Made by a program: the position numbers and the translations under genes. From a bacterium (GTDB lineage Bacteria > Patescibacteriota > Patescibacteriia > Patescibacteriales > JAKAJF01): 64,000 nucleotides of DNA. Below, in pieces: positions 23,964 to 50,356 of this stretch (its first letter is position 1; every line of letters starts with the position of its first letter). The stretch lies in assembly GCA_021788015.1 (NCBI GenBank), contig JAJYLD010000001.1, forward strand, positions 17,581 through 81,580. Direction: 5' to 3'. The notes under the pieces were generated by a model. It was given only the letters and a program-made list of their open reading frames with translations, was not told where the DNA came from and did not search any database.

Positions 23964-24090
23964 ATGATAAATATTAATTTTTCTATTTTAGCATAAATTT
24001 GCATTTTTGGAAAGCAAAATGCCCATTTCTTGACTAATGCTGAATTTTGTATTTAAAATTAATTATAAATATAAAGGATGGAGGGCGTTC

Positions 24091-24423
24091 ATGACGACTG
24101 CAACTACGGATAAGAAACAGACTGCAGAAGAGAAACGGGAAAAATGGAAAGATGAACTGATCCCTTTGCTGAAGAGGCTGCAAAAAAACACATCGACAAG
24201 CATCCTCCTCGATCCGGAGGAAAAAAAGGAAAAGCTTTCGTTCATTGAAGGCCTCATTGCCGAGGTAGAAACAAATCCTTCGACGGGCCGCTGCAGTTGC
24301 GGCAAGTTCATTGAACCCGGCAGGATAATAGCCAGGCTCAAGTTAAATGGGGATTGTGCGATATGCGCCCGCAGAAAAAGCAAGCGGGCCATGTCTTCCG
24401 GCAAAAAAATATACGCCCTCTAA
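24091..24423 (+). CDS. small zinc-ribbon protein, TraR/DksA-like C-terminus
   Basis: ATG at 24091 behind the RBS ggatggaggg. The C-terminus CSCGKFIEPGRIIARLKLNGDCAICARR (CxC...CxxC) resembles a TraR/DksA finger. Confidence 0.5.
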   Translation: MTTATTDKKQTAEEKREKWKDELIPLLKRLQKNTSTSILLDPEEKKEKLSFIEGLIAEVETNPSTGRCSCGKFIEPGRIIARLKLNGDCAICARRKSKRAMSSGKKIYAL

Positions 24424-24436
24424 ATGCATTTTCTTT

Positions 24437-24465
24437 AGACCTGAAATTCATCTCAGGTCTTTTTT
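24437..24465 (+). terminator. intrinsic terminator
   Basis: AGACCTGA-AATTCATC-TCAGGTCT followed by T5, then a TTGACA promoter-like hexamer at 24468. Confidence 0.8.
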
Positions 24466-24622
24466 CTTGACAAAAAACAAAATTTGTTTTTAGATGGAAT
24501 TAAACACAAGGGGGTTGGTGGGAAAGAATAAAGAGGAAAGGAGGTTATTTAGACTCAACTCCATGTTCATTTTCATTCTGGGGGATTAATTTCCAAGTTC
24601 ATCTACTCACAGAGGAGGCGTC

Positions 24623-25018
24623 ATGTCTGGAAAAAAGAAAACATGGGAAGAGGAGGCTTTGGAAATCCTTCTGTCTCTGAAAAAGAAGGAAGAAGCGGGA
24701 TTAAATAATCTCCTTGAACAGGAGAGAAAGGAAAGAAGCGAAAACCCGCGTCAGGAATTCGAACCTGACGAAATGGTCTCTCAGACCGTTCCTCTGGATG
24801 ACATAATATCCAGAACAAGGAAAAGGGTCGAGGCCATTAAAACGGCCATCGAGAGACACAAAAAAGGTAATTACGGTATCTGCCAGGGCGAAGGCTGCGG
24901 CGAGCAGATAGACATTAAAAGGCTCAAAGCCCAACCTTTTGCTCTACTCTGCCTTAAGTGCCAGGGTGAAAAAGAAAAAAAAGAAGTCCACAAAAGGATT
25001 AATCCCGCCTACGCATGA
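24623..25018 (+). CDS. TraR/DksA family C4-type zinc finger protein
   Basis: RBS agaggaggcgtc. C-terminus YGICQGEGCGEQIDIKRLKAQPFALLCLKCQGEKE matches the TraR/DksA finger (..CG..I...RL.A.P.A..C..CQ). Confidence 0.7.
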   Translation: MSGKKKTWEEEALEILLSLKKKEEAGLNNLLEQERKERSENPRQEFEPDEMVSQTVPLDDIISRTRKRVEAIKTAIERHKKGNYGICQGEGCGEQIDIKRLKAQPFALLCLKCQGEKEKKEVHKRINPAYA

Positions 25019-25219
25019 TCCCCCTCGAAAGAGAGGTGACCCTAGGCTCCCATCTCCAAAAATGGGTGTCCGCGCGCGGGTCTCTCTCGCAGGGGATCAT
25101 CCCTGTCCTTCCAAAAAAATAAAAGGGCGAGTCCAGTTCCCACGGACCCGCCTTTCTCTTTTTTAATTTAATCTCGAAAGAGATTTTTTTGTTAGACGCT
25201 GCGCTGGACCCTGCTTTTT

Positions 25220-25310
25220 GCCCGCCTGTCCGGTAGGCAGGTAACTAAAAAGTAAGCAAAAAGTTTCGGGGCTCCAACCTGCCTGCCGCCTGCCTGTCCG
25301 ATAGGCAGGC
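25220..25310. repeat. two GC-rich REP-like hairpins (GCCTGCCT-AYCGGAC-AGGCAGGC)
   Basis: The copy at 25288-25310 is a perfect 8-bp stem. The copy at 25220-25242 is degenerate. Track ORF 25163..25357(-) is just their translation (PTGQAG/RTGRRQAG). Confidence 0.55.
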
Positions 25311-25450
25311 TCAATTCCGCCCCCAAACCCCGCGGTGTTCTGAATACCGATTTTCAAGTCACAACTTTTATTTTTGCGTTATGTGAAAGATAATTTTGCC
25401 CAAAATGTAAAAATAAGGTATAATAAAAATATTAAACGTTACTCTTTGTT

Positions 25451-28963: not shown

Positions 28964-29977
28964 TTATGCGGTTATGTGCATTTCCTCTCTTTGAAAGTCA
29001 ACGACATGCTTCCCGACAAGTCTCTCGAAGATTGCGAGGTATCTCGCGGTCGTATCCGTAATGACTTTATCGGGAATCGGAAGGTTCGCGATGAAAGCGA
29101 GGTGTTCTTCGTTTTGCGGATCAAGAGTATGAATACCGACCGATCCGAAAGGAGTCCAGACCATTTTGCCCCATTGCCTTGCCGGTTCTTTGTCATAGCC
29201 GGAAGGCGATTTTTTCTGCTTCTGGGCCTCTTTATATTCTTTCAGGTCCCAGAGGCGGGAAGAGTCCGGGGTCAAGACCTCGTCCGCGAGGATGTAATTG
29301 ATTAACCCGTTTAGGATGAATCTGCCCCACTCGAACTTGGTGTCCGCGATGACTATGTCCTTACGCAAGGCGCAATCAGAAGCCCTGCTGAATATATCTA
29401 TCGAAAGCTTTGCTAGTTTGGGATCAACACTGTTAAAGTGGACATGCTCATCATGGCCAATTTGCGCCTTTGTGGTCGGCGTAAAAATCGGGCCGCCAGG
29501 AATGCGGGAGCCGTCGTGCAAACCGGGCGAAAGCTCTATTCCGCAAACCTGCCCGTTTTCTTTATATGATTTCCATCCCGATCCCGTGAGGATAGCGCGG
29601 ACTATGCATTCTTTGTCGACCATATCCAGTCTCTGCACCACGATGGCGCGCTTCTGTAATTCGGGGTCACCGCGGAGTTCGTAAGGCAGGAATTCGTCGA
29701 TACCGGCGCCGTAGGCCATTAGATGGTTGTCTATATAGGCGAGAACGCCGGTAAGCCAGAAGATTGTCATTGCTGTCAGAACCTCGCCCTTGAACGGAAC
29801 GAGACAGTTCAGGACGACATCAAAAATGCTCAGCCGTTCCGTAGCCAGGACGAGGTTGGTGGGGTATTTTGGGATCGCATAAGTATCCCTGACTTTCCCC
29901 TGATGAGTGCGCGGTAAGTATTTGAGAAGTTTTCTGCTCAAATCCGTTTCACGTACTACCTGTGGTATTTTTGCCAT
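28964..29977 (-). CDS. purC: phosphoribosylaminoimidazole-succinocarboxamide synthase (SAICAR synthetase), long form
   Basis: 337 aa. HQGKVRDTYAI...LVLATERLSIFDVVLNCLVPFKGEVLTAMTIFW matches PurC (GKVRD.Y...DR.SAFD....IP.KG..L...S.FWF). Terminator AAGGCAGA-ATCG-TCTGCCTT followed by T7 on the minus strand at 28937-28962. Confidence 0.85.
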   Translation of the reverse strand: MAKIPQVVRETDLSRKLLKYLPRTHQGKVRDTYAIPKYPTNLVLATERLSIFDVVLNCLVPFKGEVLTAMTIFWLTGVLAYIDNHLMAYGAGIDEFLPYELRGDPELQKRAIVVQRLDMVDKECIVRAILTGSGWKSYKENGQVCGIELSPGLHDGSRIPGGPIFTPTTKAQIGHDEHVHFNSVDPKLAKLSIDIFSRASDCALRKDIVIADTKFEWGRFILNGLINYILADEVLTPDSSRLWDLKEYKEAQKQKKSPSGYDKEPARQWGKMVWTPFGSVGIHTLDPQNEEHLAFIANLPIPDKVITDTTARYLAIFERLVGKHVVDFQREEMHITA

Positions 29978-30515
29978 TACGTCGCTTCCTCCTTTTTTCT
30001 TTTCGCCAATTCGGCGGCTTCCCTTATAGTCCTCGTTTTGGTCAATTTCGGAGTCGGGAGTTTAATTTCGGGAAGTTTGCCGTTCACCGCAAAGTGGCAA
30101 GCGCGTCTGAATCCGTCCTCGCCGATAAAGTCGCCCTGGTGGTCTTTGTATACGACCTGCGTTCCCGGTACTTTCTTTATACTCAGGATCGCGGCCAGCG
30201 TATCCTCTTCGGTTTTACCCTCAAAGGCGACACCGATCACTATCGTTTTTTGTTACGTACCATATATCTAAGGTACGCGTCGTCCGCGCCTGTTAATTGA
30301 TTGGCCATCCCCGCGCCGGTTACCAGAACATCGATATCGTCCATGTTCCAGAGATGCTCCCTTACTTCGTCCATGTTCCTATGAATACTGGCGGTTATGA
30401 CCGCCTTCACTTTTGCGGCGCCGACTACATCGGCTTCGTCAAGAAAACGCAAACCTTGAGCGCACTGCGGCAAATCGGAATCTGAACCGATCATGACTAA
30501 GATTTTTCTGATCAT
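29977..30515 (-). pseudogene. PurE/AIR-carboxylase-family gene interrupted by a frameshift in an A6 run
   Basis: N-terminal ORF: MIRKILVMIGSDSDLPQCAQGL...VLVTGAGMANQLTGADDAYLRYMVRNKKR*. Family sequence resumes one base out of frame as (KT)IVIGVAFEGKTEEDTLAAILSIKKVPGTQVV. The junction is AACAAAAAACGATAGTG (A6 at 30246-30251). Confidence 0.7.
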
Positions 30516-30624
30516 GAACACCCCCTTATGTATTTCTAAAACTAAAAAGAGCGAGTTAAAAACTCCTCCTGCATTTAATCTATAGTAAATTAGAAAAAAA
30601 TGCAAGAAAAAAGGCTTTGAAAAA

Positions 30625-31242
30625 TCAAAGCCAAAGACTTAATGCGAAAAAAGTGACATTAACAAGAAAATGCGAAGTCAAGGCGACCAAGAAGCCGTAT
30701 TTAACGAAAATAAAAGACAGAAACAAACCAATGAAAAAATGAGGAGTCACTACGAAAACATTTCTATTCGATTTCTCAAAATTATTAAGATGAGCCAGGC
30801 TCCAGACAAAATTGTATCCAAGCATGAGGCAATAAAACTGCGGTACGCCGGAAAAAAGAGAAAATCTCGGCACCCAGCCCAAAAAAATTCCTCTTGCGCC
30901 TTCTTCAATACAATTTGAACCGAAAACATTAAGAAAGAAACAAAGTAGATCCGATTTTTTCACTGAAGCTTCTTTCAGAAGTTCTCCAATTTTTGTCTCT
31001 TCGGTCGGTCCGATCAATCCTTCAATCATATTTCCCAAAGAAAGAGCGATAATGACCATAAGAAAGACAAGCCAGAGGACGTCATTTTTGAAAATGAAAA
31101 AAGTTAATTTCACTCTGACGATCTCTTTCGCTCCGCCGAGAAGAAATTTTGCCATATCCGCCCGGTTGAACAGGATTATCGTTATGACAAGAAGGTAAAA
31201 TGGAACCGTGAAAAAACGAAACGCTTTATTTTTAAAGGACAT
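30625..31242 (-). CDS. CPBP-family (CAAX/Abi) intramembrane protease
   Basis: 205 aa, polytopic. Motifs CIEEGARG (EExxxR), WSLAHL and LTSHFLVN (HxxxN). Confidence 0.75.
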   Translation of the reverse strand: MSFKNKAFRFFTVPFYLLVITIILFNRADMAKFLLGGAKEIVRVKLTFFIFKNDVLWLVFLMVIIALSLGNMIEGLIGPTEETKIGELLKEASVKKSDLLCFFLNVFGSNCIEEGARGIFLGWVPRFSLFSGVPQFYCLMLGYNFVWSLAHLNNFEKSNRNVFVVTPHFFIGLFLSFIFVKYGFLVALTSHFLVNVTFFALSLWL

Positions 31243-31322
31243 GTTTTTCCTCCCGTGTTTTTTTATTATTTTAAGTTATATTTCCGAATTGTCAAATAAA
31301 AAAAGCGGGTTTTTGTTCCGCT

Positions 31323-31421
31323 CTACTTTTTTGCGCGTTTGGAACGCGCTTTTTTACTTTGTTTCCTTTTGTTTTTCTTGTAGCCGCCACCGCATTTTTT
31401 CATGACAGCATATTTTTTCAT
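31323..31421 (-). CDS. 32-aa highly basic peptide ORF (not in track)
   Basis: ATG at 31421, 10 nt after GAGGAG. MKKYAVMKKCGGGYKKNKRKQSKKARSKRAKK*. Followed by terminator AGCGG-AACAAAAAC-CCGCT and T7. Confidence 0.35.
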   Translation of the reverse strand: MKKYAVMKKCGGGYKKNKRKQSKKARSKRAKK

Positions 31422-31428
31422 TTTTTAC

Positions 31429-32490
31429 TCAGCTCCTCTGGATTTTATCGAGCTCTGCCGGCTTGAATACTCCACGGTCTGTGATAATCCGGGTTATGTA
31501 TTTCGCCGGGGTCACATCGAAGCCGAGATTTACGGCCTCGGCGCCTTCGGGAGCGATCGCCTCTTCCCGGAAGTGCGTCAATTCTTTGGGAGACCGTTCC
31601 TCGATTTTAATCTCGTCTCCTGAATTAAGATTGAAATCGATTGTACTGGTCGGCGCCGCTACATAAAATGGAATGCCGTGCTCCTTGGCGAGGACGGCGA
31701 TCTGGTACGTACCGATTTTGTTCGCCGCATCGCCGTTCGCGACCACGCGGTCGGCGCCCACGACGACAACGTTGATTTTACCCTGGCGCATAAGAGCTCC
31801 GACGGCGCTATCCGCGACAAGAGAAGCGGGCACGCCCTCTTCAATGAGCTCATACATGGAAAGCTTTGAACCCTGATTCAGCGGGCGCGTTTCCGTCTGG
31901 AAAACATACTCCACCCTACCCGTACGGAAACCTCTAACGATAATGCCGAGAGCCGTACCTCCGCCGCCCACGACGGCGAGATTGCCCGTGTTTCAGTGAT
32001 GCAAAACACACGCGCCTTCGGGTAAAATCCCGAGGCCGTATGCTGAGATCGCTCGGTTTACTACTATATCTTCCCGTGCGATCGCAATGGCCTCGTCAAG
32101 AACCGCCTCCTTGATCTCAGCCGCGGTTTTCGTTTTGCGCGCTCTTTCCATAACTCTATCCAGACATTCGAACAGGTTCACCGCCGTCGGCCTCGTAGTC
32201 AATAATTCATCGGCCGCTGTCTCGAGATAGCGCAGAAGAAAAATGGCGTCTTCAGTCTCAGTCTCCTCCGAAGCGAGCACCATTCCGAACGCCCCCGCGG
32301 CTCCGATTGCCGGCGCGCCCCTGACGGCCATGTCTTTTATGGCTATGGCTACGTCTCCCCATGCGCGGCAAATAAGATACTCTGTTATTCCGGGCAACTT
32401 ACGCGTGTCCAGAATTTTTAGGATGTGTCCATCGTACGGTACGCCTCTCCACGTGAGCTGCAAAGTAGTTGAGGCAAATTCTGTTTGCAT
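31429..32490 (-). CDS. MtnA/eIF-2B-family sugar-phosphate isomerase (MTR-1-P or ribose-1,5-bisphosphate isomerase type) with in-frame UGA at the active-site Cys codon
   Basis: Track ORFs 31993-32535 and 31429-31971 are colinear in one frame: ...MAVRGAPAIGAAGAFGM...EGACVLHH-TGA-NTGNLAVVGGGGTALGII...ETRPLNQGSKL...VVVGADRVVANGDAANKIGT. The TGA is at 31993-31995. ATG at 32490 lies behind GGGGGTGA. Confidence 0.75.
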
Positions 32491-32634
32491 TTTCACCCCC
32501 ATTTTAGATTTAAAAAAAGAGCCGATCCAAATCAAGCTCCTCCTTTAAACTTAATCTAAGGCAAAATTAAAAATAATGCAAGGCGGGACGGAATAATAAA
32601 AAAGTTCGCGTCTAGCGAACTTGGATGCGCGGGT

Positions 32635-33867
32635 TTAACCCGCGTGTTTTCTGAAGCCCCGGTGTTCGGGGGCGAGGAAAGCGACAGACAGGCCGGCATC
32701 GGCGAAGAGCTGTTTTACCTCGTCCTTGTGCTGGCCATCACAAGGAACGACACCGCCCTTGCATCCGGCGTCAATGAGCAGCTCCGGCCCCTCGCGGCGG
32801 TCGGATTGGGAAACGAGACTGGAAATCTCGGAAAGGTAATTTAAGGCCTCTCTTTTCCCATCTCCGGTTTCCGCTGCGAGTGCGTCTTCCGCGGCTGCGT
32901 TTAAACCGCCGATTCTGTCTATTAATTTGTCAAGATCAGAAAGGTTGCCCTTAGCGTACGGGAAAAATGCATCGGAAGCAAACAGTGAATCCTTTGGATC
33001 ATGTCCGGCTCTATTCGCCCGTTCAAGGCAAAGGCGGACGCAGGCGATTCTGTCCTGCTGGCCGCAGCCCAAACCGATGAGCATCTGGTCCTTGGCGAGC
33101 GCGACTGTATTGCTCGATGCGAACCAGCAGCAGGCCCAGGCGATGATCAATGTCCCGAAATCAGTAATATTGGGTTTGCCTCTCATCGCAAGGGCAGGTA
33201 CATAATTGGTCCAATCAACCACCTCACTCGGAGTAAGATAAAACCCCGGAGCTCGCTGGACAAGCATGTCGGCGCCGATGCTCTTCCGTTCCCAAAGTCC
33301 GGGAAACGGCCTGGGATCAAGTAGCGCTTTATTGGCTATCAAACGTCTTTTTTCTCTCTTGCCGAGGAGCTCGATTGCTTCCTTTGAAAATGACGGCGCG
33401 AGTATGAGATCGAGTCCCCATTTTTTGCGGCCGATATCCGGGTCGTTCGGCACGGTAAAAAGTCCATCGGCAAGCCCCTCATCAATGGCAAAGTTGGTAA
33501 CCACCTCTCCGCCCATGACCGCGACAGAATCGCCCGTAAGCGCTTTGCGTATGGCCTTGGCTGGGTTGTCCCAATCATAAGCCGCGCCGCACGGATTGCC
33601 GTGCTTGCCGGCGACCGTGATATAAGGCATCTTGCCGGATGCTGCTTGCCTGAACGTTTCGGCGATGGTGCGCAAGATCGTGGTAATCTGGTATCCGTCG
33701 GCCATGGAAATATAGCTCGGCTCGCCGGAAACGATCTTAAATTTCGACATGGCCAACGGATCTCTAACCCCTTCAATCGACACAAGTGAAGCTGGATTTT
33801 GATACCGGTTCTCCGCGTAAGCGAGCTCCTTCGGAGTTCCTAACTTTATGTGGTTCGTTTTAGACAT
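32635..33867 (-). CDS. purH: AICAR formyltransferase (PurH C-terminal domain as a separate gene)
   Basis: Start MSKTNH at 33867 overlaps the stop of the upstream gene (ATGTCTAA). Motifs [59 protein letters not shown]. Confidence 0.8.
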
Positions 33868-35348: not shown

Positions 35349-35361
35349 TTTTAATTTCTAG

Positions 35362-39814: not shown

Positions 39815-39863
39815 CTTCGGTCGCGCTTTTTTTCTTGCAAAAAACGCAATTTTACGCTAAGAT

Positions 39864-41255: not shown

Positions 41256-41279
41256 CATGTTCAAATAATTTTTGTAAAA
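41251..41279 (+). promoter_or_regulatory. sigma-70-type promoter candidate overlapping the cysS stop
   Basis: TTGACA (41251-41256), 17 nt, TAAAAT (41274-41279). Confidence 0.45.
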
Positions 41280-41545
41280 TTTTAGTATCACTTACTGTTC
41301 CGGATGGAGTAAAGTCGGCGCGCAGTGTCCACGCTGGAGAATTTCCGGACACCTCTAGAATACTTACAATTTACCAAAACAGAGATGGTCTTTTCAGCTG
41401 GTCCCTGCCGGAAGGAATGATGGACAGTCCCTTCTGGAAAAGGTTCGGCATTTTTATTCCCGACTACGTTAAGCCGGGGGATGTTGTTACAATTTTATGG
41501 CAGGACGAAACCTGCGCTTGCGCAAAGTTGCTCTTACCTATCTAA
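41252..41545 (+). CDS. hypothetical small protein (start uncertain)
   Basis: 97-aa track ORF. Its 5' part overlaps the promoter-like signal, so the real start may be internal (e.g. [10 protein letters not shown]...). No family recognised. Confidence 0.3.
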
Positions 41546-41584
41546 TGGCCCTTAACAAGCGGCCTTTTTATTTAAAATAAAAAG

Positions 41585-41607
41585 AGTACGTTCAATTTGA
41601 ACGTACT
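41585..41607. terminator. palindromic terminator overlapping the GGDEF gene stop
   Basis: AGTACGTTCAA-T-TTGAACGTACT. On the minus strand it is followed by CTTTTTATTTT. Confidence 0.6.
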
Positions 41608-42158
41608 TTGCTCGGCAAAAGAATTATTTTTTCCTTGCTTCTTTTAATTTTATACATCATTTCATCCGCTCGATCAATCAACTCAAGCGGACTTACATCT
41701 TCGCCGGGTTTATATTCCGTAATTCCTATGCTCGCCTTAATTTTATGGTCGGCGAGCAATTTTTTGGCAAAGATTTTGGCACTGTTATTATCCGTTTCCG
41801 GGAGAACGACCACGAATTCATCGCCTCCGTATCGCGCGCATAAATCGGACGACCTTGTATAGCGCTTGATTGTTTCGCCTACATAGGCCAGGTGTCGATC
41901 GCCCTCGATATGCCCCTCCGTGTCGTTCAGTTTTTTGAACCCGTCAAGATCCATAAACAAAACGGATAATTTGCGGCCGTATCGATCGGATCGATCCATT
42001 TCCAATTTCAGTTCTCTCGCCAGCCCCCGACGATTTAAAAGTCCGGTGAGATCGTCTATGGCGGCTTGCTGTTTCAGCTTTTCATTTTCGCGCCGCAATG
42101 ATATATTCTTTATCAATGCGACTATGAGTAAGGCTAAAATTAAAAAAAGAGCATACAT
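41592..42158 (-). CDS. membrane-anchored GGDEF diguanylate cyclase
   Basis: ATG at 42158 (MYALFLILALLIVALI) behind GGGAGGAC. DDLTGLLNRRG, FMDLDGFKKLND, RYGGDEFVVVL. Confidence 0.88.
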   Translation of the reverse strand: MYALFLILALLIVALIKNISLRRENEKLKQQAAIDDLTGLLNRRGLARELKLEMDRSDRYGRKLSVLFMDLDGFKKLNDTEGHIEGDRHLAYVGETIKRYTRSSDLCARYGGDEFVVVLPETDNNSAKIFAKKLLADHKIKASIGITEYKPGEDVSPLELIDRADEMMYKIKRSKEKIILLPSKVRSN

Positions 42159-42218: not shown

Positions 42219-43190
42219 ATGAAAAAACGTCAAGACTTTTGGAAAGAATTAAAAAAACGAGGGAAAATATACGCTTTGGCGCCAATGGCCGGCGTTACCG
42301 ATAGCGCGTTTCGGCAAATTTGCAAATCATACGGAGCCGATGTCGTTTACAGCGAAATGGCGAGCGCGACCGCTTTGACTTTTAATCCGAAAGAAACTTT
42401 GGACATGCTTAAGTTTGAAAAAATGGAACGGCCGTACGTCGTGCAACTGTTCGGAAGCAAGCCCGAACATTTCGCAGTCGCGGCGAAATTGGTAGCAAAG
42501 AAAATAAAGCCGGACGGAATCGATATCAACTTCGGATGTCCGGTCAAAAAAGTGCAAAAGCAGCATGCCGGCGCATCGCTCATGAGCGATTTGCGATTAT
42601 CGAAGAAAGTAATCGAGGCAGTTTTAGAAAATGCGAATTTGCCGGTTTCCGTAAAAATGAGAAGCGCGTCGGGTAAAATAGACGCGATAAAATTTTTAAA
42701 GAACATTGGAAATCTGAAAGTGAGCGCGGTCATGATTCATGGCAGAACGATGGCGCAGGGACACGCGGGAGAAGCGGATTGGAAAATTATCAGAGAGGCG
42801 CGGAAACATTTCCGGGGCGTTCTTCTCGCGAACGGAGGAATTACGAGCGCGGAAGACGCTCGAGCAATGCTCGAAAAAACCGGCGCGGACGGAGCGGGGA
42901 TCGCGCGCGGCGCCTTGGGCAGGCCGTGGATATTTAAAAATATAAAAAATAAAAAATTAAAAATAAAAAATGAGGATGTTTTCAAGATTGCCTTAAAGCA
43001 TTCGAGGCTGGCTTATAAACTGAAAGGCAAGCGGGGGGTTATTGAAATGAGAAAACATTTATGTTGGTATGTTTCGGGCATGTCGAACGCGAGCGAGTTG
43101 AGGAGGGAATTGGTGAAGGTGGAAAAAATAAACAAGATAAAGAGCATCTTGATAACGGATAACAAAAAAATTCTAAATCCTAATATCTAA
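42219..43190 (+). CDS. dus: tRNA-dihydrouridine synthase
   Basis: ATG at 42219. LAPMAGVTDSAFRQICKSYGADVVYSEM, GIDINFGCP, VMIHGRT. Confidence 0.9.
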   Translation: MKKRQDFWKELKKRGKIYALAPMAGVTDSAFRQICKSYGADVVYSEMASATALTFNPKETLDMLKFEKMERPYVVQLFGSKPEHFAVAAKLVAKKIKPDGIDINFGCPVKKVQKQHAGASLMSDLRLSKKVIEAVLENANLPVSVKMRSASGKIDAIKFLKNIGNLKVSAVMIHGRTMAQGHAGEADWKIIREARKHFRGVLLANGGITSAEDARAMLEKTGADGAGIARGALGRPWIFKNIKNKKLKIKNEDVFKIALKHSRLAYKLKGKRGVIEMRKHLCWYVSGMSNASELRRELVKVEKINKIKSILITDNKKILNPNI

Positions 43191-43325
43191 ACTCTAAACA
43201 ATATCGGATGACAAAAATAAAAATTCAAAATGTTTTGGTTATTTGAATTTTATAGCTTTGGATTTGTTCAATCTGCCGGCCGGCCGGCGGGGATTTAGAA
43301 ATTAGGATTTAGGATTTATAATTTT
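43170..43325. repeat. left arm of long inverted repeat flanking corA
   Basis: ttctaaatcctaatatctaaactctaaacaatatcggatgacaaaaataaaaattcaaaatgttttgg... is the near-exact reverse complement of 44313-44450. It carries a 25-nt GC insert (gttcaatctgccggccggccggcgg). Confidence 0.7.
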
Positions 43326-43347: not shown

Positions 43348-44310
43348 TTACAGCCATTTTTTCTTCTTAAAGAACATAAGCATGCCGGCCGCTATTAAAG
43401 CCATAAATCCGATGATTATCCAGAAACCGTGCTTCCCGTGAATAAAAGGCATGCCGTCGACCGTGTTCATGCTAAAAATCGTCGCGAACAGAGTCAAAGG
43501 AAAAACGATAACGGAAAAAATGGTCAAAGTTTTGATGACGTCGTTCAATTTATAATTCAAGAGAGATTCATTCGTTTCGTATAGAATGTCAACCATTTCT
43601 TTTTGATTTTCAAGAATTTCCCAAATCGTTTTCGAATGCTCGATCAAATCCTTGTAAAATCTTATTATTTCTTCGTTCATGACGATATGGTTTTTCATTT
43701 CGAGAAGTTTTTTGAAAATGTTTTTATGGTTCTGCATGATTTTCCTGAAGTTGATGATATTGAGGCGCAAAGCCAAAATTTCCGAAATCGCCTTTTTTCT
43801 TTCGGGCGAAAAAATCATGTTTTCGACATTTTGTATTTCCAAGCTGTTTTTGTCGATAAGCGAATAGCATGAGAGCATCAATTTTTCCAAAACCTCGTAA
43901 AGCAGGACGGCCGTCGATCCGAATTCGCAAGCCAGGAAAGAGCTCCCGTCCTTTTTGCACAAATTGAACAAAATGTTGAGATGCGGCACGTTGTTATGAA
44001 TCGTCGCCAAATATGTCTCACTTATGAAAAAATCAAACTCATCCGGCACGATTTTCCCGTCCTTCAAGGCGGGAAATTGCAAAATCAAAAAAAGATAACC
44101 GTTACCCTGGCTTAGGCTCGGCCGTTGCGCGATCGCTTTTGCGGAGGAAGCCTGAAGATGACTGAGATTGAAATTGTATTCCTTCCGCAAATATTCGATT
44201 TCTTTTTTTCCGGCGTTGGTGATATTAAGCCAAACAAGTTCATTGTCGAGAGCCGGATTGCTAATGGCAACTTGTTGAATCGTTTTTGAAATTTGATTGA
44301 ATCTGGACAT
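43348..44310 (-). CDS. corA: CorA-family magnesium/cobalt transporter
   Basis: 320 aa. Two C-terminal TM helices with ..FATIFSMNTVDGMPF.. (GMN-type motif). Confidence 0.85.
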   Translation of the reverse strand: MSRFNQISKTIQQVAISNPALDNELVWLNITNAGKKEIEYLRKEYNFNLSHLQASSAKAIAQRPSLSQGNGYLFLILQFPALKDGKIVPDEFDFFISETYLATIHNNVPHLNILFNLCKKDGSSFLACEFGSTAVLLYEVLEKLMLSCYSLIDKNSLEIQNVENMIFSPERKKAISEILALRLNIINFRKIMQNHKNIFKKLLEMKNHIVMNEEIIRFYKDLIEHSKTIWEILENQKEMVDILYETNESLLNYKLNDVIKTLTIFSVIVFPLTLFATIFSMNTVDGMPFIHGKHGFWIIIGFMALIAAGMLMFFKKKKWL

Positions 44311-44312
44311 AA

Positions 44313-44450
44313 ATAAATAAAATCCTAAATCCTAATTTCCAAATCCTAAATAAATCCGAAATTATAAATCCAAATGACCAAAATGTTTTGAATTTTTATT
44401 TTTTGTCATCCGATATTGCTTAGAGTTTTAGATATTAGAAATTAGATTTT
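44313..44450. repeat. right arm of long inverted repeat flanking corA
   Basis: ...caaatgaccaaaatgttttgaatttttattttttgtcatccgatattgcttagagttttagatattagaaattagattt; see the left arm. Confidence 0.7.
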
Positions 44451-44574
44451 TTAAAATTTAAATTCGGGTTGGAATTTAAATTTATTCGGGTCATTCGAAA
44501 TAAATCGGCAGATTCCGATTACTTATATTATAGCACACCTTGACAGGTTTACGAAAATTTAATAAGATGAAAAC

Positions 44575-44705
44575 ATGAATCCCGTTAGAAGCCGCGATCG
44601 CTTTGGCGGGGAAAAGCATATAAATAAAAGATTAAATTAAACTATCCGCATTAAATTAAGCAGATAAAGAAAAACGATCGCGATCTGCTTCTAGCGAGAT
44701 GAATC
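44575..44705. repeat. MITE-like structured repeat, copy B
   Basis: ATGAATCCCGTTAGAAGCCGCGATCGCTT...CGATCGCGATCTGCTTCTAGCGAG, bounded by direct ATGAATC at 44575 and 44699. Confidence 0.6.
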
Positions 44706-44784
44706 AAAGATTTATAAAAGTTAACCCGAGCAACGTGCCGGCTCCGCGAGAGTCGGGTTGCTTCGGTTTATAAATCTTTTGATT
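44706..44784 (+). other. long rod-like hairpin (about 31 bp in three segments) upstream of proB
   Basis: TCAAAGATTTATAAA/TTTATAAATCTTTTGA (15 bp, 1 bulge), CCGAGCAAC/GTTGCTTCGG, CCGGCTC-CGCGA-GAGTCGG. Followed at 44806-44832 by CAACC..GGTTG and T6. Confidence 0.5.
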
Positions 44785-44871
44785 TAAACAGAACGCTATC
44801 GAGGCAACCTGAATTAAAAAAGGTTGTTTTTTGTTGCTTTTAAAATTAAAATTCATAAAGGGGGATTCATC

Positions 44872-45615
44872 ATGAAGAGAATTCTGGTCTTAAAAATCGG
44901 CACAAAATCAATAGTCACGCCCGGAGGTAAAATAAGGCGGGACTTATTGAAAAACACGGCCGCGGATGTCGCGCGGGTTATGAAAAAGGGATGGAAGGTA
45001 ATAATAGTTTCGTCCGGCGCTATCGCTTTTGGGAAAAATCATAAGCTGGTCCAAGGCAAAAAGTTGACGAAGCAGAATTACGCCATGATCGGCCAGAATA
45101 AACTGGTGGGAGCTTGGCAAAAATTTTTTGAGCCGCTTGGCATTCCCGCCGGTCAGGTTCTTTACGAAAACAAAAGCCTGCGAGGGGAAAGCCGAGAATC
45201 GGTAACCGAAGTGCTTATGGCTTTTTTGAGAATTGGGGTTCCCGTCGTGAATGAAAACGATGGGATTACCAATGAAGAAATCCGAGATCTGTTCGGTTTC
45301 GGCGATAACGACCAACTCGCCGCGCTCATTTCCAAAGCGGTCAAAGCCGAAAAGGTGATTTTTCTCACGACCGTTCCCGGAATATATGATAAGGCCGGCA
45401 AAATCATTCGGGTGATAAATGCCAGGGAACGGAAAATCCAAAACGGCCTCTGCGTCAAATCAGGGGACTCGAATGGAGGCATGCCCTCGAAACTGAAAGC
45501 CGGGAAAATGGCCGCCCTCGCCGGTAGCGAAGCGATAATCGCAAGCTACAAAGAGAAAGACATTCTCACTCGCCTGATTAAAGGCGAGGAGATCGGAACA
45601 AAAATAGTCGCTTAA
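44872..45615 (+). CDS. proB: glutamate 5-kinase (amino-acid kinase domain only, no PUA)
   Basis: ATG at 44872 behind aaagggggatt. LVLKIGTKSIV, VIIVSSGAIAFG, FGDNDQLAALI. Confidence 0.8.
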   Translation: MKRILVLKIGTKSIVTPGGKIRRDLLKNTAADVARVMKKGWKVIIVSSGAIAFGKNHKLVQGKKLTKQNYAMIGQNKLVGAWQKFFEPLGIPAGQVLYENKSLRGESRESVTEVLMAFLRIGVPVVNENDGITNEEIRDLFGFGDNDQLAALISKAVKAEKVIFLTTVPGIYDKAGKIIRVINARERKIQNGLCVKSGDSNGGMPSKLKAGKMAALAGSEAIIASYKEKDILTRLIKGEEIGTKIVA

Positions 45616-46104: not shown

Positions 46105-46187
46105 AAAATTTATAAATATATACATTAATCATATCAAAAAAATTTATTTCGGGCGAGAAAAACGGAAAAAATTATAAAAAAACCGCC

Positions 46188-46580
46188 TCAACTTTTTGTT
46201 GGGCGGATTTGGCCGTGTTTAGAGTCTTCGTCATCGGCGTCCGGTATAACCCGGCTTCCTCCGATGAACAAAACACAAAAATAACTCTCTCTTGTTTTTT
46301 CTCGGATTTTAGCTTCCTCCGGCGTGCCTCTCTCATACAGTAGTGGTACGGGAATCGCCCGAGGGTCGTTTATCGGCTTGCCAAGGAAAACGCGGTTACC
46401 GTTTTTAACGCCGCAGTATTGGCCCCGCTCGAAAATACATTCTCTGGGCTCGCATATTTTCGTATCGAACCACCTTGAGATAGCAGTGGCCTTAATCGGA
46501 GGGTCGAAACGATAATTTCTGCCGACGACAAGATGTGGTGCGTCCATCGAGACTTGTCCTCGGGTGATATTACGGCGCAT
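46188..46580 (-). CDS. hypothetical protein
   Basis: ATG at 46580 (MRRNITRGQVSMDAPH...) behind AAGGAGGAG. 130 aa, several Cys. No family recognised. Confidence 0.5.
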   Translation of the reverse strand: MRRNITRGQVSMDAPHLVVGRNYRFDPPIKATAISRWFDTKICEPRECIFERGQYCGVKNGNRVFLGKPINDPRAIPVPLLYERGTPEEAKIREKTRESYFCVLFIGGSRVIPDADDEDSKHGQIRPTKS

Positions 46581-46725
46581 CTTAAATTTCAACTTCTCCT
46601 CCTTATCTTTTTTCCTTTTTTTGATTAAAAATATCAATAGTATAAAATAGCACCTGTTGCGAAAACTGTCAATTTCGTTTGTTTTCCGTTTTTCATGTTT
46701 TCTTAATTTATGTTATAATAAATTC

Positions 46726-47226
46726 ATGCCCGACAAAGAAGAAGCGCAAAAAAATACGCTTGAAAACCATGAACAAAGAATAAAAACCGAAACGACAAAA
46801 GTCGAATCTGGTCCCTTTGTTCATGGACCGGAAAGAATGAATGAAATCGATCATGAAGAAGAGAAAAAAATCATCGGAGAAATTTCGGGAAAAGACGCCG
46901 ACGCCGGAAATATCGTCGCGGCCACGAACGCCAGGGAAGAAACTCGAAGAGAGGAAAAAGAAATCGAAAAAGCGCTTGAAAGCGGACTGGAAGACATTTA
47001 TTTGAAGATGTCTCCGGAAAAGCAAAAAGAATTTAAGGCCAAAGGCGAAGAGACCGCGAAAAAAATCAACCGACTTTTGCATAAGGCCAAAGTGAAGATC
47101 AAAGACATTATCGACTTAATCAAAAAATGGCTCGCCGTCATTCCGGGCGTGAATAAATTTTTTATTGAAAAAGAAGCGAAGATAAAGACGGACGAAATTG
47201 TGAAGATTAAGAATAAACCTTTTTGA
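46726..47226 (+). CDS. Glu/Lys-rich hypothetical protein with C-terminal amphipathic/TM segment
   Basis: ATG at 46726. 166 aa. ...IIDLIKKWLAVIPGVNKFF... Sits upstream of the VirD4-like ATPase. Confidence 0.5.
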   Translation: MPDKEEAQKNTLENHEQRIKTETTKVESGPFVHGPERMNEIDHEEEKKIIGEISGKDADAGNIVAATNAREETRREEKEIEKALESGLEDIYLKMSPEKQKEFKAKGEETAKKINRLLHKAKVKIKDIIDLIKKWLAVIPGVNKFFIEKEAKIKTDEIVKIKNKPF

Positions 47227-47327: not shown

Positions 47328-49874
47328 ATGGATTACGGTATCTCTCAACAAAATTACCCCATTCAAATCAATGCCAGCATGAACGCCAGCTCCAATCAGT
47401 GGCTGGTTGTTTTGTTTTGGATAGCCGTTGTCGCGCTCGTCATTTTAATTATCCGTTCCATTATTAAATTTTTCGTAAAACGTTCGCGTTTGCACGATCA
47501 TATTATTTATCTCGTCCGCCTCCCCAAAGAAAAACCGAAAGACCAGGAGAAAATTTACGGCGTCCAGCAGCTTCGGGAGGAAATCGCGCGCGGAGAAACG
47601 ATTTTCGCGAGTATCGGCGGATTGCGCGCCCAGCGCGGTTTGAATAAGGAAGGTATTCGCGCCTGGCTTTTCGGCAGAAACGACCATTTTTCTTTCGAAA
47701 TCACGGCCAATCACAAGGTGATTTCTTTCTACGCGGTCGCTCCGAAACGCATGGCCCGCTATCTCGAGCAGCAAATCCAAGCGCATTTTCCCGAAGCGGC
47801 AATGGAAGAAGTGAAAGATTATAATATTTTCAATCCCTCCGGAGATACGGAAGCCTGCTTTCTAAAAACCCAACGCGAATTTATTTTTCCCTTAAAGACA
47901 TACACGCGCATGGAAGCCGACCCGATGAATTCCTTGATCAACGTCATGTCGAAATTGAACAAGGACGAGGCGATCGCCGTGCAATACGTCGTCCGCAGCG
48001 CGAAACCGGGTTGGCATCGAGTCGTCGTCAAGTTTGTCGCCAACGTTCATAAGTTCAACTCGGTGCGGGACGCTTTGCGCAATCGTGGTCTCGTCAAGGT
48101 TCTTCTTTTTTGGAGCGATCTTTTCAAATCGGCCAAGCCGAAAAATTCGAATCCGGAAAACCAAAGACGCTTGACCCCGATGGAAGAGGAAACTTTAAAA
48201 ATCATCGAGGAGAAAAACGCGAAAGCGGGGCTGGACGTCAATTTGCGCATCGTCGTAAGCGCGCGCGACCGTTATCACGCCAAACATATCTTAAACAACA
48301 TGGTCGGCGCTTTCAGCCAGTACAACTATTACGAGTACGGCAACAGTTTTAAAAATAAGGTCAGTCATTTTTGGAACATATTGCTGCATTGGCGCGGGCG
48401 CAATCGAATTTTGACCGATTTCATTTACCGCCGTTTCGACGCGAAGACCGGTTTTATTCTGAACACGGAGGAACTGGACAGTATGTATCATTTTCCTTTG
48501 CGTCAAGCGGAAACGCCGAACATAAATTGGCTTACGGCGAAACACGCGGCCGCTCCGACGAACATTCCCGACGAGGGCATAATTCTCGGGCGCAATATTT
48601 ATCGAGGCGTGGTCAGGGACGTAAAAATAAAAAGAACCGATCGCAGAAGACATGCGTATATAATAGGTAAGTCGGGCGTGGGCAAATCGCAACTTATGGC
48701 CAGTATGGCCATTCAGGATATTTTAAACGGCGAGGGCGTTTGCGTCATCGATCCGCACGGCGATTTGATCAACGACATTTTAACGCGTATTCCGCCGGAA
48801 CGGGCCGAAGACGTCATCCTGTTCTCCCCGGCCGATATTTCGAGGCCGATGGGATTGAATTTGCTTGAATTCGATTCGCGCTATCCCGAACAGAAAACTT
48901 TCGTCATCAACGAAATGATAAAAATATTCGACAAGCTTTACGATCTGAAAGCGACCGGCGGGCCGATTTTCGAGCAATACATGCGCAACGCCATGCTCCT
49001 TGTCATGAGCGACCCGGAATCAGGTTCGACGTTGATGGAAATTCCGCGCGTTTTGGCCGACCCCGAATTTCGCAGAATGAAACTTTCGAAATGCGGCGAC
49101 CCAACCGTTGTCGATTTCTGGCGCAAGGAAGCGGAAAAGGCGGGGGGAGAAGCGGCTCTGGCGAATGTCGTTCCTTATATCACTTCGAAATTAACTTCTT
49201 TCATTTCGAACGATACCATGCGTCCGATCATCGGTCAGCAAAAAAGCTCGTTTAATTTGCGCGATGTCATGGATCATCAAAAAATTCTTCTCGTCGATTT
49301 GACGAAAGGTTTGATCGGCGAACTGAACGCGCATCTTCTCGGCATGATTCTGGTCGGAAAAATTTTGATGTCCGCCCTGTCCCGCGCCGACATGCCGCAG
49401 GAAAAAAGAAAAGATTTTTACCTTTACATCGACGAATTTCAAAATTTTACGACCGATTCGATTTCTTCGATTCTTTCCGAAGCGAGAAAATACAGTTTGA
49501 ATTTGATCATCGCCCATCAATACCTCGGCCAGCTCGTGAAGCCGAACGACACCTCGATTCGCGACGCGGTTTTCGGAAACGTGGGCACATGGATTGTTTT
49601 CAAGATCGGCTCGGAAGACGCGGAAAAGATGGAAAAAGAATTCGCGCCCGTCTTTAATCAGTATGACTTGATCAATGTGGAAAAATACACGGCTTACATA
49701 AAATTGTTGATCGACAATACGGCTTCCCGTCCTTTCTCGATGGTTACTCCCTGGCCCTTGCCCGGGGTGAAACGGGAAGAGTCGGGAGCGCGCATAAAAA
49801 CTTTAAGTCGTTTAAAATTCGGCCAGGATCGAAACATAATCGAGGCGGAGATAAGAAAAAGAGCAGTGATTTAA
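47328..49874 (+). CDS. membrane-anchored P-loop ATPase, TraG/TraD/VirD4 (type IV coupling protein)-like
   Basis: 848 aa with an N-terminal TM helix. Walker A IIGKSGVGKSQL, Walker B FYLYIDEFQNF, and ARKYSLNLIIAHQYLGQL, typical of TraD/VirD4/HerA-FtsK-clade ATPases. Confidence 0.7.
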   Translation: MDYGISQQNYPIQINASMNASSNQWLVVLFWIAVVALVILIIRSIIKFFVKRSRLHDHIIYLVRLPKEKPKDQEKIYGVQQLREEIARGETIFASIGGLRAQRGLNKEGIRAWLFGRNDHFSFEITANHKVISFYAVAPKRMARYLEQQIQAHFPEAAMEEVKDYNIFNPSGDTEACFLKTQREFIFPLKTYTRMEADPMNSLINVMSKLNKDEAIAVQYVVRSAKPGWHRVVVKFVANVHKFNSVRDALRNRGLVKVLLFWSDLFKSAKPKNSNPENQRRLTPMEEETLKIIEEKNAKAGLDVNLRIVVSARDRYHAKHILNNMVGAFSQYNYYEYGNSFKNKVSHFWNILLHWRGRNRILTDFIYRRFDAKTGFILNTEELDSMYHFPLRQAETPNINWLTAKHAAAPTNIPDEGIILGRNIYRGVVRDVKIKRTDRRRHAYIIGKSGVGKSQLMASMAIQDILNGEGVCVIDPHGDLINDILTRIPPERAEDVILFSPADISRPMGLNLLEFDSRYPEQKTFVINEMIKIFDKLYDLKATGGPIFEQYMRNAMLLVMSDPESGSTLMEIPRVLADPEFRRMKLSKCGDPTVVDFWRKEAEKAGGEAALANVVPYITSKLTSFISNDTMRPIIGQQKSSFNLRDVMDHQKILLVDLTKGLIGELNAHLLGMILVGKILMSALSRADMPQEKRKDFYLYIDEFQNFTTDSISSILSEARKYSLNLIIAHQYLGQLVKPNDTSIRDAVFGNVGTWIVFKIGSEDAEKMEKEFAPVFNQYDLINVEKYTAYIKLLIDNTASRPFSMVTPWPLPGVKREESGARIKTLSRLKFGQDRNIIEAEIRKRAVI

Positions 49875-49885
49875 TTTTAATAAAA

Positions 49886-49909
49886 AAGACCGGATTATAA
49901 ACCGGCCTT
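49886..49909 (-). terminator. intrinsic terminator (best on minus strand)
   Basis: Minus strand: AAGGCCGG-TTTATAAT-CCGGTCTT followed by T6. Confidence 0.7.
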
Positions 49910-49921
49910 GAGGCTCAACTA

Positions 49922-50215
49922 TTAGTCGCCATGATCCTCGAAAGGAAGATCTTTTTCCTTTGCGAAGTCGCGAATGAACGCATAGAGCTTATCTTTTTGT
50001 TCTTTTTCCACGCTCACGATTACATGCCAAGTCGGATGGGTCGGGTAGCAACGATATTCGTCGACTTTTTTAATATATTATTCCCCCATCATGATGTTTC
50101 TAAGGGCGAATTTTTCCCCGAATTTCACCATGAAATCGCCGGCATGCTCCTTAAGTATGACCACGTTCAGCTGAATAAGCTCTTTACTCGAGAAGATAAG
50201 AACCCCGTCTGTCAT
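49922..50215 (-). pseudogene. small hypothetical gene interrupted by an in-frame TAA
   Basis: ATG at 50215 behind AAGGAGG. MTDGVLIFSSKELIQLNVVILKEHAGDFMVKFGEKFALRNIMMGE-TAA(50080-50078)-YIKKVDEYRCYPTHPTWHVIVSVEKEQKDKLYAFIRDFAKEKDLPFEDHGD*. The terminator follows the second stop, not the first. Confidence 0.45.
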
Positions 50216-50356
50216 GTTCGCCTCCTTAAAGGAGGCAAAAGTTACGTTTAAATTAAAGCAAAATAAAAGATTTGTCAAGAAAGTTCGAGGTTTATCTTTA
50301 CAAAAATAAAAAATTGGTGTATAATGAGTTAGCTTTTTAAAAATAAATATAAAAAT

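Follow-up and report, generated by a model that had tools for sequence, protein, structure and literature searches.

Why do a few small genes carry conspicuous expression signals of their own among housekeeping genes that mostly lack Shine-Dalgarno (SD) sequences? The question is raised by the 64-kb stretch of bacterial DNA analyzed here (43% G+C; contig JAJYLD010000001.1 of assembly GCA_021788015.1), which we call the window. A sequence-only reading had marked five short segments of it as cassettes with a near-consensus -35 box, a strong SD sequence, one or two small open reading frames (ORFs) and a terminator, and took them for foreign modules, moron-like or derived from phages or plasmids, that had been acquired repeatedly, or alternatively for a dedicated regulon of small proteins. 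We consider it fairly probable that the small genes are self-sufficient accessory units, likely acquired horizontally, in the SD-independent backbone of a bacterium of the Candidate Phyla Radiation (CPR). They are designated c1a, c1b, c2b, c2c, c4 and c5 below.

The cysteinyl-tRNA synthetase CysS of the window is 72-74% identical to proteins from metagenome-assembled genomes of Candidatus Falkowbacteria and other Patescibacteria, with nothing closer, and the gene content is CPR-like (RtcB with archease, an IF-2B-family sugar-phosphate isomerase, a 23S-rRNA-intervening-sequence (IVS) protein and a VirD4-like ATPase, all by Pfam). Judged by these genes, the window belongs to a Falkowbacteria-like CPR (Patescibacteria) bacterium with a tiny genome. 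ORFs were called mechanically, about 70 of them were annotated with Pfam, and starts were refined by eye. SD strength was taken as the energy of the duplex that the anti-SD sequence ACCUCCUUU forms with the 19 nt preceding each candidate start. For comparison, we used two independent sets of relatives, namely 80 genome loci centred on CysS and 80 metagenome loci centred on the VirD4-like gene. The best CysS and VirD4 identities were about 70-74% in genome and metagenome collections alike, too distant for a fine-scale comparison of presence and absence.

The anti-SD energies in the window are bimodal. Among 82 ORFs, 19 have energies of -9.8 kcal/mol or lower, none falls between -9 and -7 kcal/mol, and the remaining 63 are weaker than -7 kcal/mol, with 32 of these above zero. 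A continuous distribution had been named beforehand as evidence against two sets of expression signals, and it is not what was found. In nine non-CPR loci analyzed for contrast, SD strength was graded (28% at or below -6, 8.7% at or below -9.5), whereas the SD sequences of the window are nearly all strong. About 63 genes thus have no SD sequence, with A/U-rich, G-poor upstream DNA and a U at position -1, and about 19 have a strong GGAGG. In an unbiased test, the first ATG was taken as the start, irrespective of SD sequences, and internal in-frame ATGs served as the control. A strong SD sequence preceded 13 of 66 starts (19.7%) versus 7 of 221 internal ATGs (3.2%), a six-fold enrichment; for internal in-frame ATG, GTG and TTG sites together, GGAGG occurs by chance in 2.5%. 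The SD-poor backbone with a strong-SD minority, as described in the sequence-only reading, is therefore real.

SD-less genes share a start context of their own. In 397 conserved SD-less genes of the relatives, G makes up only 3-13% at each position from -22 to -1 and A 38-54%, and T occupies position -1 in 73%. In the window, 30 of 48 SD-less and 3 of 16 SD-led genes have U(-1) (p = 0.0035); for the relatives, the share is 73% among core and 26% among SD-led accessory genes (p = 8e-9). Moreover, a -10-like hexamer ends exactly 6 nt 5' of the ATG in 39 of 428 SD-less genes of the relatives (about 9%, against a background of about 9 genes), and cysS and o46726 in the window show the same placement. 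Because of this exact distance, a subset of the SD-less genes may well be expressed from leaderless mRNAs. The combination of U(-1) with a G-depleted leader appears to be undescribed for this CPR clade.

Strong SD sequences are associated with accessory genes throughout the lineage. With first-ATG starts, they were present in 18 of 170 singletons (10.6%) versus 10 of 396 shared genes (2.5%) of the genome loci (odds ratio (OR) 4.6, p = 1.6e-4), and, within the clade that shares the gene order of the window, in 14 of 71 singletons versus 3 of 74 shared genes. The 803 genes of the metagenome set gave the same picture, with strong SD sequences in 10.8% of singletons, 7.9% of genes found in 2-4 loci, none at 5-19 loci and 0.9% at 20 or more loci, the last value being identical to the internal-ATG control (OR 4.8, p = 1.9e-6). 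An earlier pooled test with SD-guided starts had been weak (OR 1.9, p = 0.07), because its signal was diluted by spurious GGAGG calls inside conserved genes. The 37 SD-led accessory proteins of the relatives mostly lack a Pfam family and are functionally heterogeneous; those with a family include two GGDEF proteins, two type IV secretion system (T4SS) pilins and DnaJ-like, radical-SAM and amino-acid-kinase proteins.

Promoter signals partition in a similar way. An exact TTGAC[AT] hexamer lies within 130 nt upstream of 5 of 16 SD-led genes outside a large G+C-rich island described below, versus 0 of 48 SD-less genes (p = 6e-4). The five sites are at 24030 and 39096 on the plus strand and at 46672, 31295 and 50278 on the minus strand; two further sites, at 24467 (c1b) and 39066 on the minus strand (c2b), are located farther upstream of their genes. 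Among the relatives, the hexamer was found for 30.8% of SD-led accessory genes versus 9.9% (p = 4e-4), and a complete promoter-like site for 20.5% versus about 5%. In the window, the exact -35 box thus occurs only in front of SD-led genes. Backbone promoters are also sigma70-like, but their -10 box is strong and their -35 box weak (parA TTGTCA-17-TATAAT; TTGCCC-17-TATAAT for the gene at 25451; TTTACA-17-TATAAT for the gene at 50357; cysS TTGCAA-17-TAAGAT). A sequence scan also bore out the terminators ascribed to the cassettes, as a hairpin with a T-run follows c1a, c1b, the c2b unit, c4 and c5. Scans for consensus motifs thus place a promoter and a terminator around single ORFs, and these promoters and SD sequences are predicted to be active.

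Unit c1a (24030-24466, plus strand) starts with a predicted promoter, TTGACT-18-TAAAAT (24030-24059), followed by GGAGG at 24080-24084, 6 nt 5' of the ATG (energy -9.8), by an ORF of 110 aa (24091-24423) with a C-terminal CxC...CxxC pattern and by a terminator at 24437-24460. Immediately downstream, c1b (24467-25160, plus strand) has a -35 box TTGACA (24467-24472), a weak -10 box, a leader of about 120 nt, GGAGG at 24614-24618, 4 nt 5' of the ATG, an ORF of 131 aa (24623-25018) and a bidirectional terminator (25126-25152). The two genes had been interpreted as a pair of TraR/DksA-like zinc fingers. This was confirmed for c1b, which has a DksA/TraR-type C4 zinc finger and matches PF01258 (E = 2e-10, 40.9 bits versus a gathering cut-off of 24.9) as well as the generic DksA family phrog_54 (E = 3e-7), although it stays below all DksA/TraR equivalog cut-offs (53.4 bits versus 105 for DksA_like NF033459, 18-34 versus 60-108 for the TraR models). 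It did not extend to c1a, which has no Pfam or NCBIfam match and no significant BLASTP similarity to c1b, and resembles the finger in the spacing of CxC...CxxC alone.

The segment assigned to these two genes (24027-25360) also holds, from 25163, a G+C-rich, hairpin-rich non-coding element (25163-25375, no strand assigned) with two 22-nt direct repeats (25220-25241 and 25288-25309). Its core (25244-25288) recurs with 87.5% identity over 48 nt in a dus-corA intergenic region of a relative (L088, a metagenome contig, positions 8060-8107). The element spans 25200-25375 in the window and 8040-8200 in L088, with the core ACTAAAAAGTAAGCAAAAAGTYTCGGGG ... CCCCSAACCCC. Neither an Rfam family (E-value threshold, 24950-25450) nor an IMG/VR match for the 20-nt core was found; the element may be a conserved small RNA.

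The segment at 38060-39814 contains two units in opposite orientation. Unit c2b (38105-39066, minus strand) has a predicted promoter, TTGACA-17-TAAATT (39066 to 39038), a leader of about 320 nt, GGAGG about 11 nt 5' of the ATG and a 50-aa ORF (38709 to 38557). A G+C-rich region of about 450 nt follows (about 38560 to 38130) and then a terminator (38124 to 38110). The region folds beyond shuffled sequences (z = -6.9 for the minus strand, -4.6 for the plus strand), contains several AAGGGAGG motifs on the minus strand (38130-38560) and matched no Rfam family (E-value threshold, 38000-39100). It is probably non-coding and may be a novel structured RNA, or else a long 3' untranslated region with structure. 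As a correction to the sequence-only reading, the genes at 38060-39000 belong to the minus strand. Both the long ORF on the plus strand of this part and the Pro/Arg-rich ORFs on its minus strand appear to result from G+C richness, and a supposed very basic protein of 54 aa (38224 to 38060), which lies inside the structured region, is doubtful.

The divergent unit c2c (39096-39835, plus strand) is led by a predicted promoter TTGACA-16-TAAAAT (39096-39123), a 52-nt leader and the SD sequence AAGGGGGA (energy -11.3). Its ORF (39176-39814, 212 aa) encodes an N-terminal CxxC...CxxC zinc ribbon and is followed by a weak terminator with a T-run. The protein is an ORFan, its sole match among 5.8e9 clustered proteins being c2c itself, and the AlphaFold2 (AF2) single-sequence model is unusable (mean predicted local distance difference test score, pLDDT, 36).

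Unit c4 (46173-46672, minus strand), which agrees with the cassette proposed at 46188-46640, has a predicted promoter TTGACA-17-TATTTT with a TG motif (46672 to 46644) and GGAGG (46602 to 46598) 5 nt 5' of a TTG at 46592 (with an ATG at 46580). Its ORF extends to 46188 (130-134 aa), with a terminator at about 46196 to 46173. The protein belongs to a rare family of 110-134 aa, with 29 representatives among 1.84e9 proteins and the conserved motifs FDPP...A and F.GKP..D.R. The predicted fold (AF2) is confident and beta-rich (pLDDT 83.6) and had no match in the PDB. A profile search returned few members, all on short contigs. In the homologues on the unrelated short contigs L082 and L083, a TTGAC[TG] box together with an SD sequence of the AAGGAG type also precedes the gene; of the hairpins with T-run behind it, that of L083 is clear and that of L082 weak.

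The remaining unit, c5 (49886-50278, minus strand), has a -35 box TTGACA (50278 to 50273), an ATG at 50215 and a terminator (49909 to 49886) that it has in common with virD4. Its GGAGG (50225 to 50221) lies inside a perfect 6-bp hairpin, GCCTCC-TTTAA-GGAGGC (50236 to 50220). The reading frame comprises 45 codons, an in-frame TAA (MMGE*YIKKV) and 51 more codons up to 49925, and no homologue was found at word level. Of the proposal for this segment (49922-50290), the SD sequence, -35 box and terminator hold, but they belong to this broken minus-strand frame and not to the plus-strand ORF at 49931-50251. The cassette design is absent altogether from the segment at 41251-41560. The 97-aa ORF c3 (41252-41545, plus strand) overlaps the cysS stop by 4 nt and its TTG start, the only upstream start codon, lies inside the very TTGACA that had been read as a -35 box. 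Complementarity to the anti-SD sequence (energy -7.0) is at an unsuitable spacing, so that c3 has no SD sequence. The ORF matches no family, and c3 is doubtful as a real gene.

The six units differ from the backbone most clearly in codon usage. The distance in relative synonymous codon usage (RSCU) between the seven ORFs originally proposed as cassettes (including c3) and the backbone is 1.23, versus 0.62+-0.14 for size-matched random backbone subsets (p < 0.001). For the large island, the corresponding values are 1.09 and 0.50+-0.11. Individual genes were scored by leave-one-out log-odds between an island model and a backbone model, positive values being island-like. Outside the island, only c1a (+0.098), c1b (+0.081), c2b (+0.261), c2c (+0.083), c4 (+0.044) and c5a (+0.208) were positive, and all 48 SD-less genes and all ten other SD-led genes were negative (Fisher p = 1e-4), as was c3 (-0.031). 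The six genes also differ from 13 equally small genes (Mann-Whitney p = 4e-4). The ten SD-led genes with native codons encode an ABC protein (2781), a cupin, hyp61, a GlsB-type protein, hyp55, a 205-aa membrane protein, hyp82, a GGDEF protein, an amino-acid kinase and a response regulator. The window therefore contains three classes of genes, namely native SD-less genes, native-like SD-led genes, and foreign-like SD-led genes comprising the island and the six small genes.

Deviations from backbone codon usage correlate strongly between cassettes and island (r = 0.85, versus r = 0.29 for the other SD-led genes). As the correlation holds within GC-ending (0.83) as well as within AT-ending codons (0.85), the likeness is not merely a matter of G+C content at third codon positions (GC3). 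The higher G+C reported for the cassettes is correct but modest (G+C 0.47 versus 0.43; GC3 0.57 versus 0.47). Higher G+C as a trait of SD-led genes in general was rejected (p = 0.19-0.48), and GC3 of the relatives showed no shift. In the cassettes CAG, GAG, AAG, the rare AGG and NNC codons are increased, with TTC, TAC, CAC and AAC favored over their T-ending synonyms, and Leu codons move from TTG/TTA to CTN.

The island itself (28964-34474, minus strand) spans 5.5 kb with 50-56% G+C and contains SD-led purC, purE, an MtnA/e2b2-type isomerase and purH (Pfam). Both purE (29977-30605) and purH (32635-34474) are frameshifted, and the isomerase (31429-32535) is a single frame with an in-frame TGA inside VLHH*NTGNLA, near the site of a Cys that is conserved in this family. 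The whole island looks like decaying imported DNA. Nested in it is the gene for the 205-aa multi-pass membrane protein (31242 to 30625, minus strand; G+C 0.38), with native-like codons, an SD sequence and a perfect promoter motif TTGACA-16-TAAAAT, which resembles a unit of native type within foreign DNA.

Codon usage bears on a different explanation, that the small genes are native and very highly expressed, with promoter, SD sequence and C-ending codons all selected for expression. C-ending codons are often preferred in highly expressed genes, and the preference for TTC, TAC, CAC and AAC and the combination of a consensus -35 box with a strong SD sequence fit such selection. Yet the same signature is found on island genes with frameshifts or a nonsense interruption, the genes are absent from all relatives, and one is a pseudogene. 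The rise of AAG, GAG, CAG and AGG and the shift of Leu to CTN also look compositional rather than adapted to tRNAs. The codon shift thus suggests a different mutational background and not translational selection, and we regard high native expression as quite unlikely.

An artefact, due to chance motifs, wrong gene calls or a chimeric metagenome assembly, is very improbable indeed. The contig is metagenomic, some of the ORFs first proposed were on the wrong strand, and GGAGG precedes 2.5-3% of internal in-frame starts by chance. Against this, strong SD sequences exceed the internal control six-fold, four independent signals coincide (SD sequence, -35 box, absence of U(-1) and codon usage), and the pattern was replicated in both sets of relatives. 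The assembly was also checked against a Logan contig (L081, run SRR13170411) that is 100% identical to 35409-40094 of the window and covers parA, parB, the entire c2 segment with both junctions and the start of cysS.

The units lie between conserved genes. The backbone around them comprises cysS (39870-41255), dus (42219-43190), corA (43348-44310, minus strand), o46726 (46726-47226), the virD4-like gene (47328-49874) and o50357 (50357-51061), all six with SD energies of -4 or weaker and A/U-rich upstream DNA. Their order recurs in L008, L009, L011, L013, L035 and other loci, and they were found in 28, 32, 41, 59, 80 and 61 of the 80 metagenome loci, respectively. Most of the roughly 160 related loci are syntenic, with the flanking backbone kept, but tblastn with c1a, c1b, c2a, c2b, c2c, c3, c4, c5a and c5b returned no match in either set of 80 loci. 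The cassettes are thus not conserved core genes, which had been a possible outcome damaging to the proposal. The neighbors are chromosomal and not those of a prophage (bipA, an AI-2E transporter gene, parB, cysS, a GNAT gene and virD4, by Pfam).

Between bipA and cysS, which are 1-5 kb apart in the relatives and 16 kb apart in the window, the additional DNA contains c1, a native-like, SD-less block of AI-2E transporter, archease and RtcB genes, the island, parAB and c2. In L027, a tRNA-Leu match lies directly upstream of cysS. The tRNA-Leu(CAA) of the window (35361-35445, minus strand) has an exact copy of 39 internal nt (35373-35411) at 35252-35290, about 80 nt beyond its 3' end, with no second copy at the far side of the island. 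The copy lies at the edge of 11.6 kb that are lacking in relatives and may be a scar of integration or excision. Atypical composition and absence from relatives, by which genomic islands are recognized, are both found here. A GIY-YIG fragment was also called on the Logan contig near the copy, at about 35579-35713 of the window.

A known vehicle, such as prophage morons, integron cassettes or an integrative element that left remnants at tRNA-Leu, would fit the autonomous promoter-ORF-terminator design and the duplicated tRNA fragment. It would also fit the lack of the 11.6 kb from bipA to tRNA-Leu in L027 and other relatives, and DksA/TraR-like zinc fingers are common in phages and plasmids (phrog_54). 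Nevertheless, Pfam revealed no phage structural or replication genes, transposase or integrase in the span, no integrase or recombinase domain between 23.7 and 35.4 kb, and no integrase domain anywhere in the window, and the cassettes are spread over five separate junctions rather than collected in one array. Integron gene cassettes were considered and rejected, since there is neither an integrase nor a shared flanking repeat of the attC type, and since the cassettes bring their own promoters. With the missing phage and IMG/VR matches given below, a known vehicle is distinctly improbable.

SD sequences are not restricted to foreign-looking genes, which leads to the main rival, a dedicated native regulon. 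SD-led genes would then be a lineage-encoded class served by a separate, conditional route, for example an anti-SD sequence that is freed under some condition, as in Bacteroidia ribosomes lacking bS21, and the cassettes would be fast-evolving native members. The GGDEF diguanylate cyclase gene (41592-42158, minus strand; Pfam) has GGGAGG 9 nt upstream (energy -10.2) and a native codon score (-0.108). It occupies the same place between cysS and dus in four relatives (L011, L012, L095 and L138), each time with GGAGG or GGGGG 6-9 nt upstream. A regulon is further suggested by the sharply bimodal rather than graded SD strength, by the ten SD-led genes with native codons, by members of regulatory or stress type (DksA-like, GGDEF, GlsB/YmgE-type and cupin), by the hairpin around the SD sequence of c5, which could serve translational control, and by the precedent of Bacteroidia (PMC9976891, PMC13000453). 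However, neither the SD-led genes of the window nor the 37 accessory proteins of the relatives are functionally coherent, SD-led genes are overwhelmingly locus-specific with strong SD sequences in only 0-0.9% of conserved genes, and the codon usage of the six cassettes is non-native. We therefore hold a native regulon to be unlikely as the explanation of the cassettes. It does not exclude import, as SD-led initiation may be a minority native route that imports exploit.

Since the SD sequence is kept on at least one positionally conserved gene, that for GGDEF, the anti-SD sequence is likely to be functional in this lineage. Several results weigh against horizontal acquisition of the units. The ten native-codon genes demonstrate that an SD sequence alone is no proof of foreignness, and the conserved GGDEF signal indicates that it works as a native signal as well and is not merely a foreign scar. 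SD-led accessory genes of the relatives have no compositional shift against their own core genes (dGC3 +0.005), so that the foreign composition is specific to the six genes of the window, and the cassette codon statistics are based on about 670 codons from 64 kb of genome. Absence from relatives could also mean old lineage-specific genes, given that the nearest CysS and VirD4 are only about 70% identical. No rRNA gene, and hence no 16S 3' end, was found in the window or any fetched locus; ribosomal protein genes were likewise absent from both. PHROGs and PADLOC searches with ten small proteins yielded only the generic DksA match of c1b, tblastn with c4 and c2c against phage records and searches with c1b and c4 in IMG/VR yielded nothing, and no shared flanking repeats, att-like sites, target duplications or flanking mobility genes were seen at the cassettes. 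Homology to phages, plasmids or defence systems was thus not found in these searches. The proposed moron-like or phage/plasmid origin accordingly finds no support beyond the generic DksA match. The more general idea of repeated foreign acquisition gains from the island-like codon signature and absence from relatives of the six genes, but it does not account for an SD-led class that is wider than the foreign-looking one.

Despite these points, we favor horizontally acquired, self-sufficient units. Conserved genes would start translation without an SD sequence, from A/U-rich, G-depleted leaders with U(-1) and in part without a leader. Between them, c1a, c1b, c2b (with its RNA), c2c, c4 and c5 would each contribute a sigma70-type promoter with a consensus -35 box, a leader of 25-60 nt or more, GGAGG, one small ORF and an intrinsic terminator. 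Because they supply their own signals and are insulated by terminators, such units could be expressed wherever they land and leave the neighbors undisturbed. Their shared island-like codon signature and their absence from all relatives argue for recent import from a common SD-using gene pool that would also have supplied the island. Some units would already be decaying, as suggested by the nonsense codon in c5 and the frameshifts in the island, and the SD-anti-SD route would still function, as native genes such as that for GGDEF keep their SD sequence.

A bolder proposal, which we offer as speculation with a low probability, is that the flexible genome of Falkowbacteria-like CPR travels as plug-and-play micro-cassettes with an initiation grammar of their own, that the cell may gate the SD route, and that the c2b unit may encode an undescribed RNA of about 450 nt. 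Gating would operate via a conditionally available anti-SD sequence or via SD sequences held in hairpins as in c5. If so, the expression of imported genes could be uncoupled from that of the core.

A large share of bacterial diversity belongs to the CPR/Patescibacteria, and their transcription and translation initiation is almost unstudied. If the pattern is genome-wide, it would allow accessory or imported genes to be recognized from a simple sequence feature, constrain models of CPR ribosomes, because the anti-SD sequence must still work, and guide the choice of expression signals for CPR genetic tools. Gene callers trained on one design may also mis-start genes of the other; here, both the automatic caller and the sequence-only reading erred in c2, and the latter also in c5.

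Some further features of the window were noted. Two c-di-GMP-II (GAG-type) riboswitch aptamers stand in tandem on the plus strand (12808-12900 and 12965-13053), with scores of 61.6 and 43 bits that exceed the gathering cut-off. The gene that begins about 250 nt farther downstream (13309-15831) encodes a LigD-type ligase/primase-polymerase of 840 aa and is unusual in this position. At the gathering score, no known Rfam family explained the G+C-rich structured stretches anywhere in the window. A 23S-rRNA-IVS-family gene (PF05635; 36626-36856, plus strand) is oddly placed between parA and parB. An element occurs in two copies (7529-7655 and 44575-44703) that share an identical 29-nt start (ATGAATCCCGTTAGAAGCCGCGATCGCTT), and an AT-rich stretch of about 80 nt separates this start from a complementary arm (GATCGYGATCTGCTTCTA). 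In front of the second copy, at 44540, lies TTGACA-17-TAAGAT with an ATG 6 nt past the -10 box, which predicts a leaderless mini-ORF (MNPVRSRDRF...). The leader of the SD-led gene for the amino-acid kinase (44872-45615) contains a nested long hairpin (44700-44870, plus strand), with AATCAAAGATTTATAAA ... TTTATAAATCTTTTGATT around a G+C-rich stem. The hairpin resembles a riboswitch and matched no Rfam family (E-value threshold, 44530-44880). Finally, inverted repeats of low complexity (AAATCCTAAATCC-type), about 150 nt long and 76% identical, lie on either side of corA (43166-43317 versus 44320-44452).

Among known systems, the morons of temperate phages are similar in being small ORFs with their own promoter and terminator, located between conserved syntenic genes, of odd composition and variable presence. 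Unlike morons, the cassettes have no prophage context or phage homology and have housekeeping neighbors, so that the resemblance is one of design and not of membership. Horizontally acquired islets and islands are comparable in their absence from relatives and in pseudogenisation, and the cassettes share their codon signature with a 5.5-kb island beside tRNA-Leu. They differ as single-gene units of 0.4-1 kb at five junctions without integrase or direct repeats. Within the DksA/TraR family, c1b has the C-terminal C4 zinc finger (PF01258) after a helical region, though far below the DksA equivalog cut-offs, and c1a has the cysteine pattern only.

In Bacteroidia the anti-SD sequence is present and sequestered by bS21, bS18 and bS6, and rpsU carries an SD sequence. 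As in that class, core genes of the lineage studied here lack SD sequences (0-0.9% strong, control 0.9%) and have A-rich, G-poor upstream DNA, next to a small separate set with strong SD sequences. In contrast to Bacteroidia, the window is from CPR, its preferred start context includes U(-1), and its SD-led set is mostly strain-specific and accessory rather than a conserved autoregulated ribosomal gene. SD-independent translation with rare SD-bearing genes such as rpsU is described for Bacteroidia in two publications (PMC9976891, PMC13000453). For CPR, Tsurumaki et al. (2022) reported that about half of Parcubacteria lack the anti-SD motif in 16S rRNA (PMC9297842), which likewise points to reduced SD reliance of CPR ribosomes. 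Their report concerns the 16S motif and not SD sequences per gene, and in the lineage studied here some native genes still have canonical, conserved SD sequences, a sign that its anti-SD sequence is probably intact. In full-text searches of the CPR literature, we found only this paper on the 16S motif and nothing on per-gene SD usage, leaderless starts or a split between accessory and core genes.

SD-poor lineages and horizontally acquired islets are each well known. The new part is a discrete design of SD sequence and consensus -35 box that a CPR lineage uses only in its flexible genome, as opposed to the U(-1), A/U-rich design of its core.

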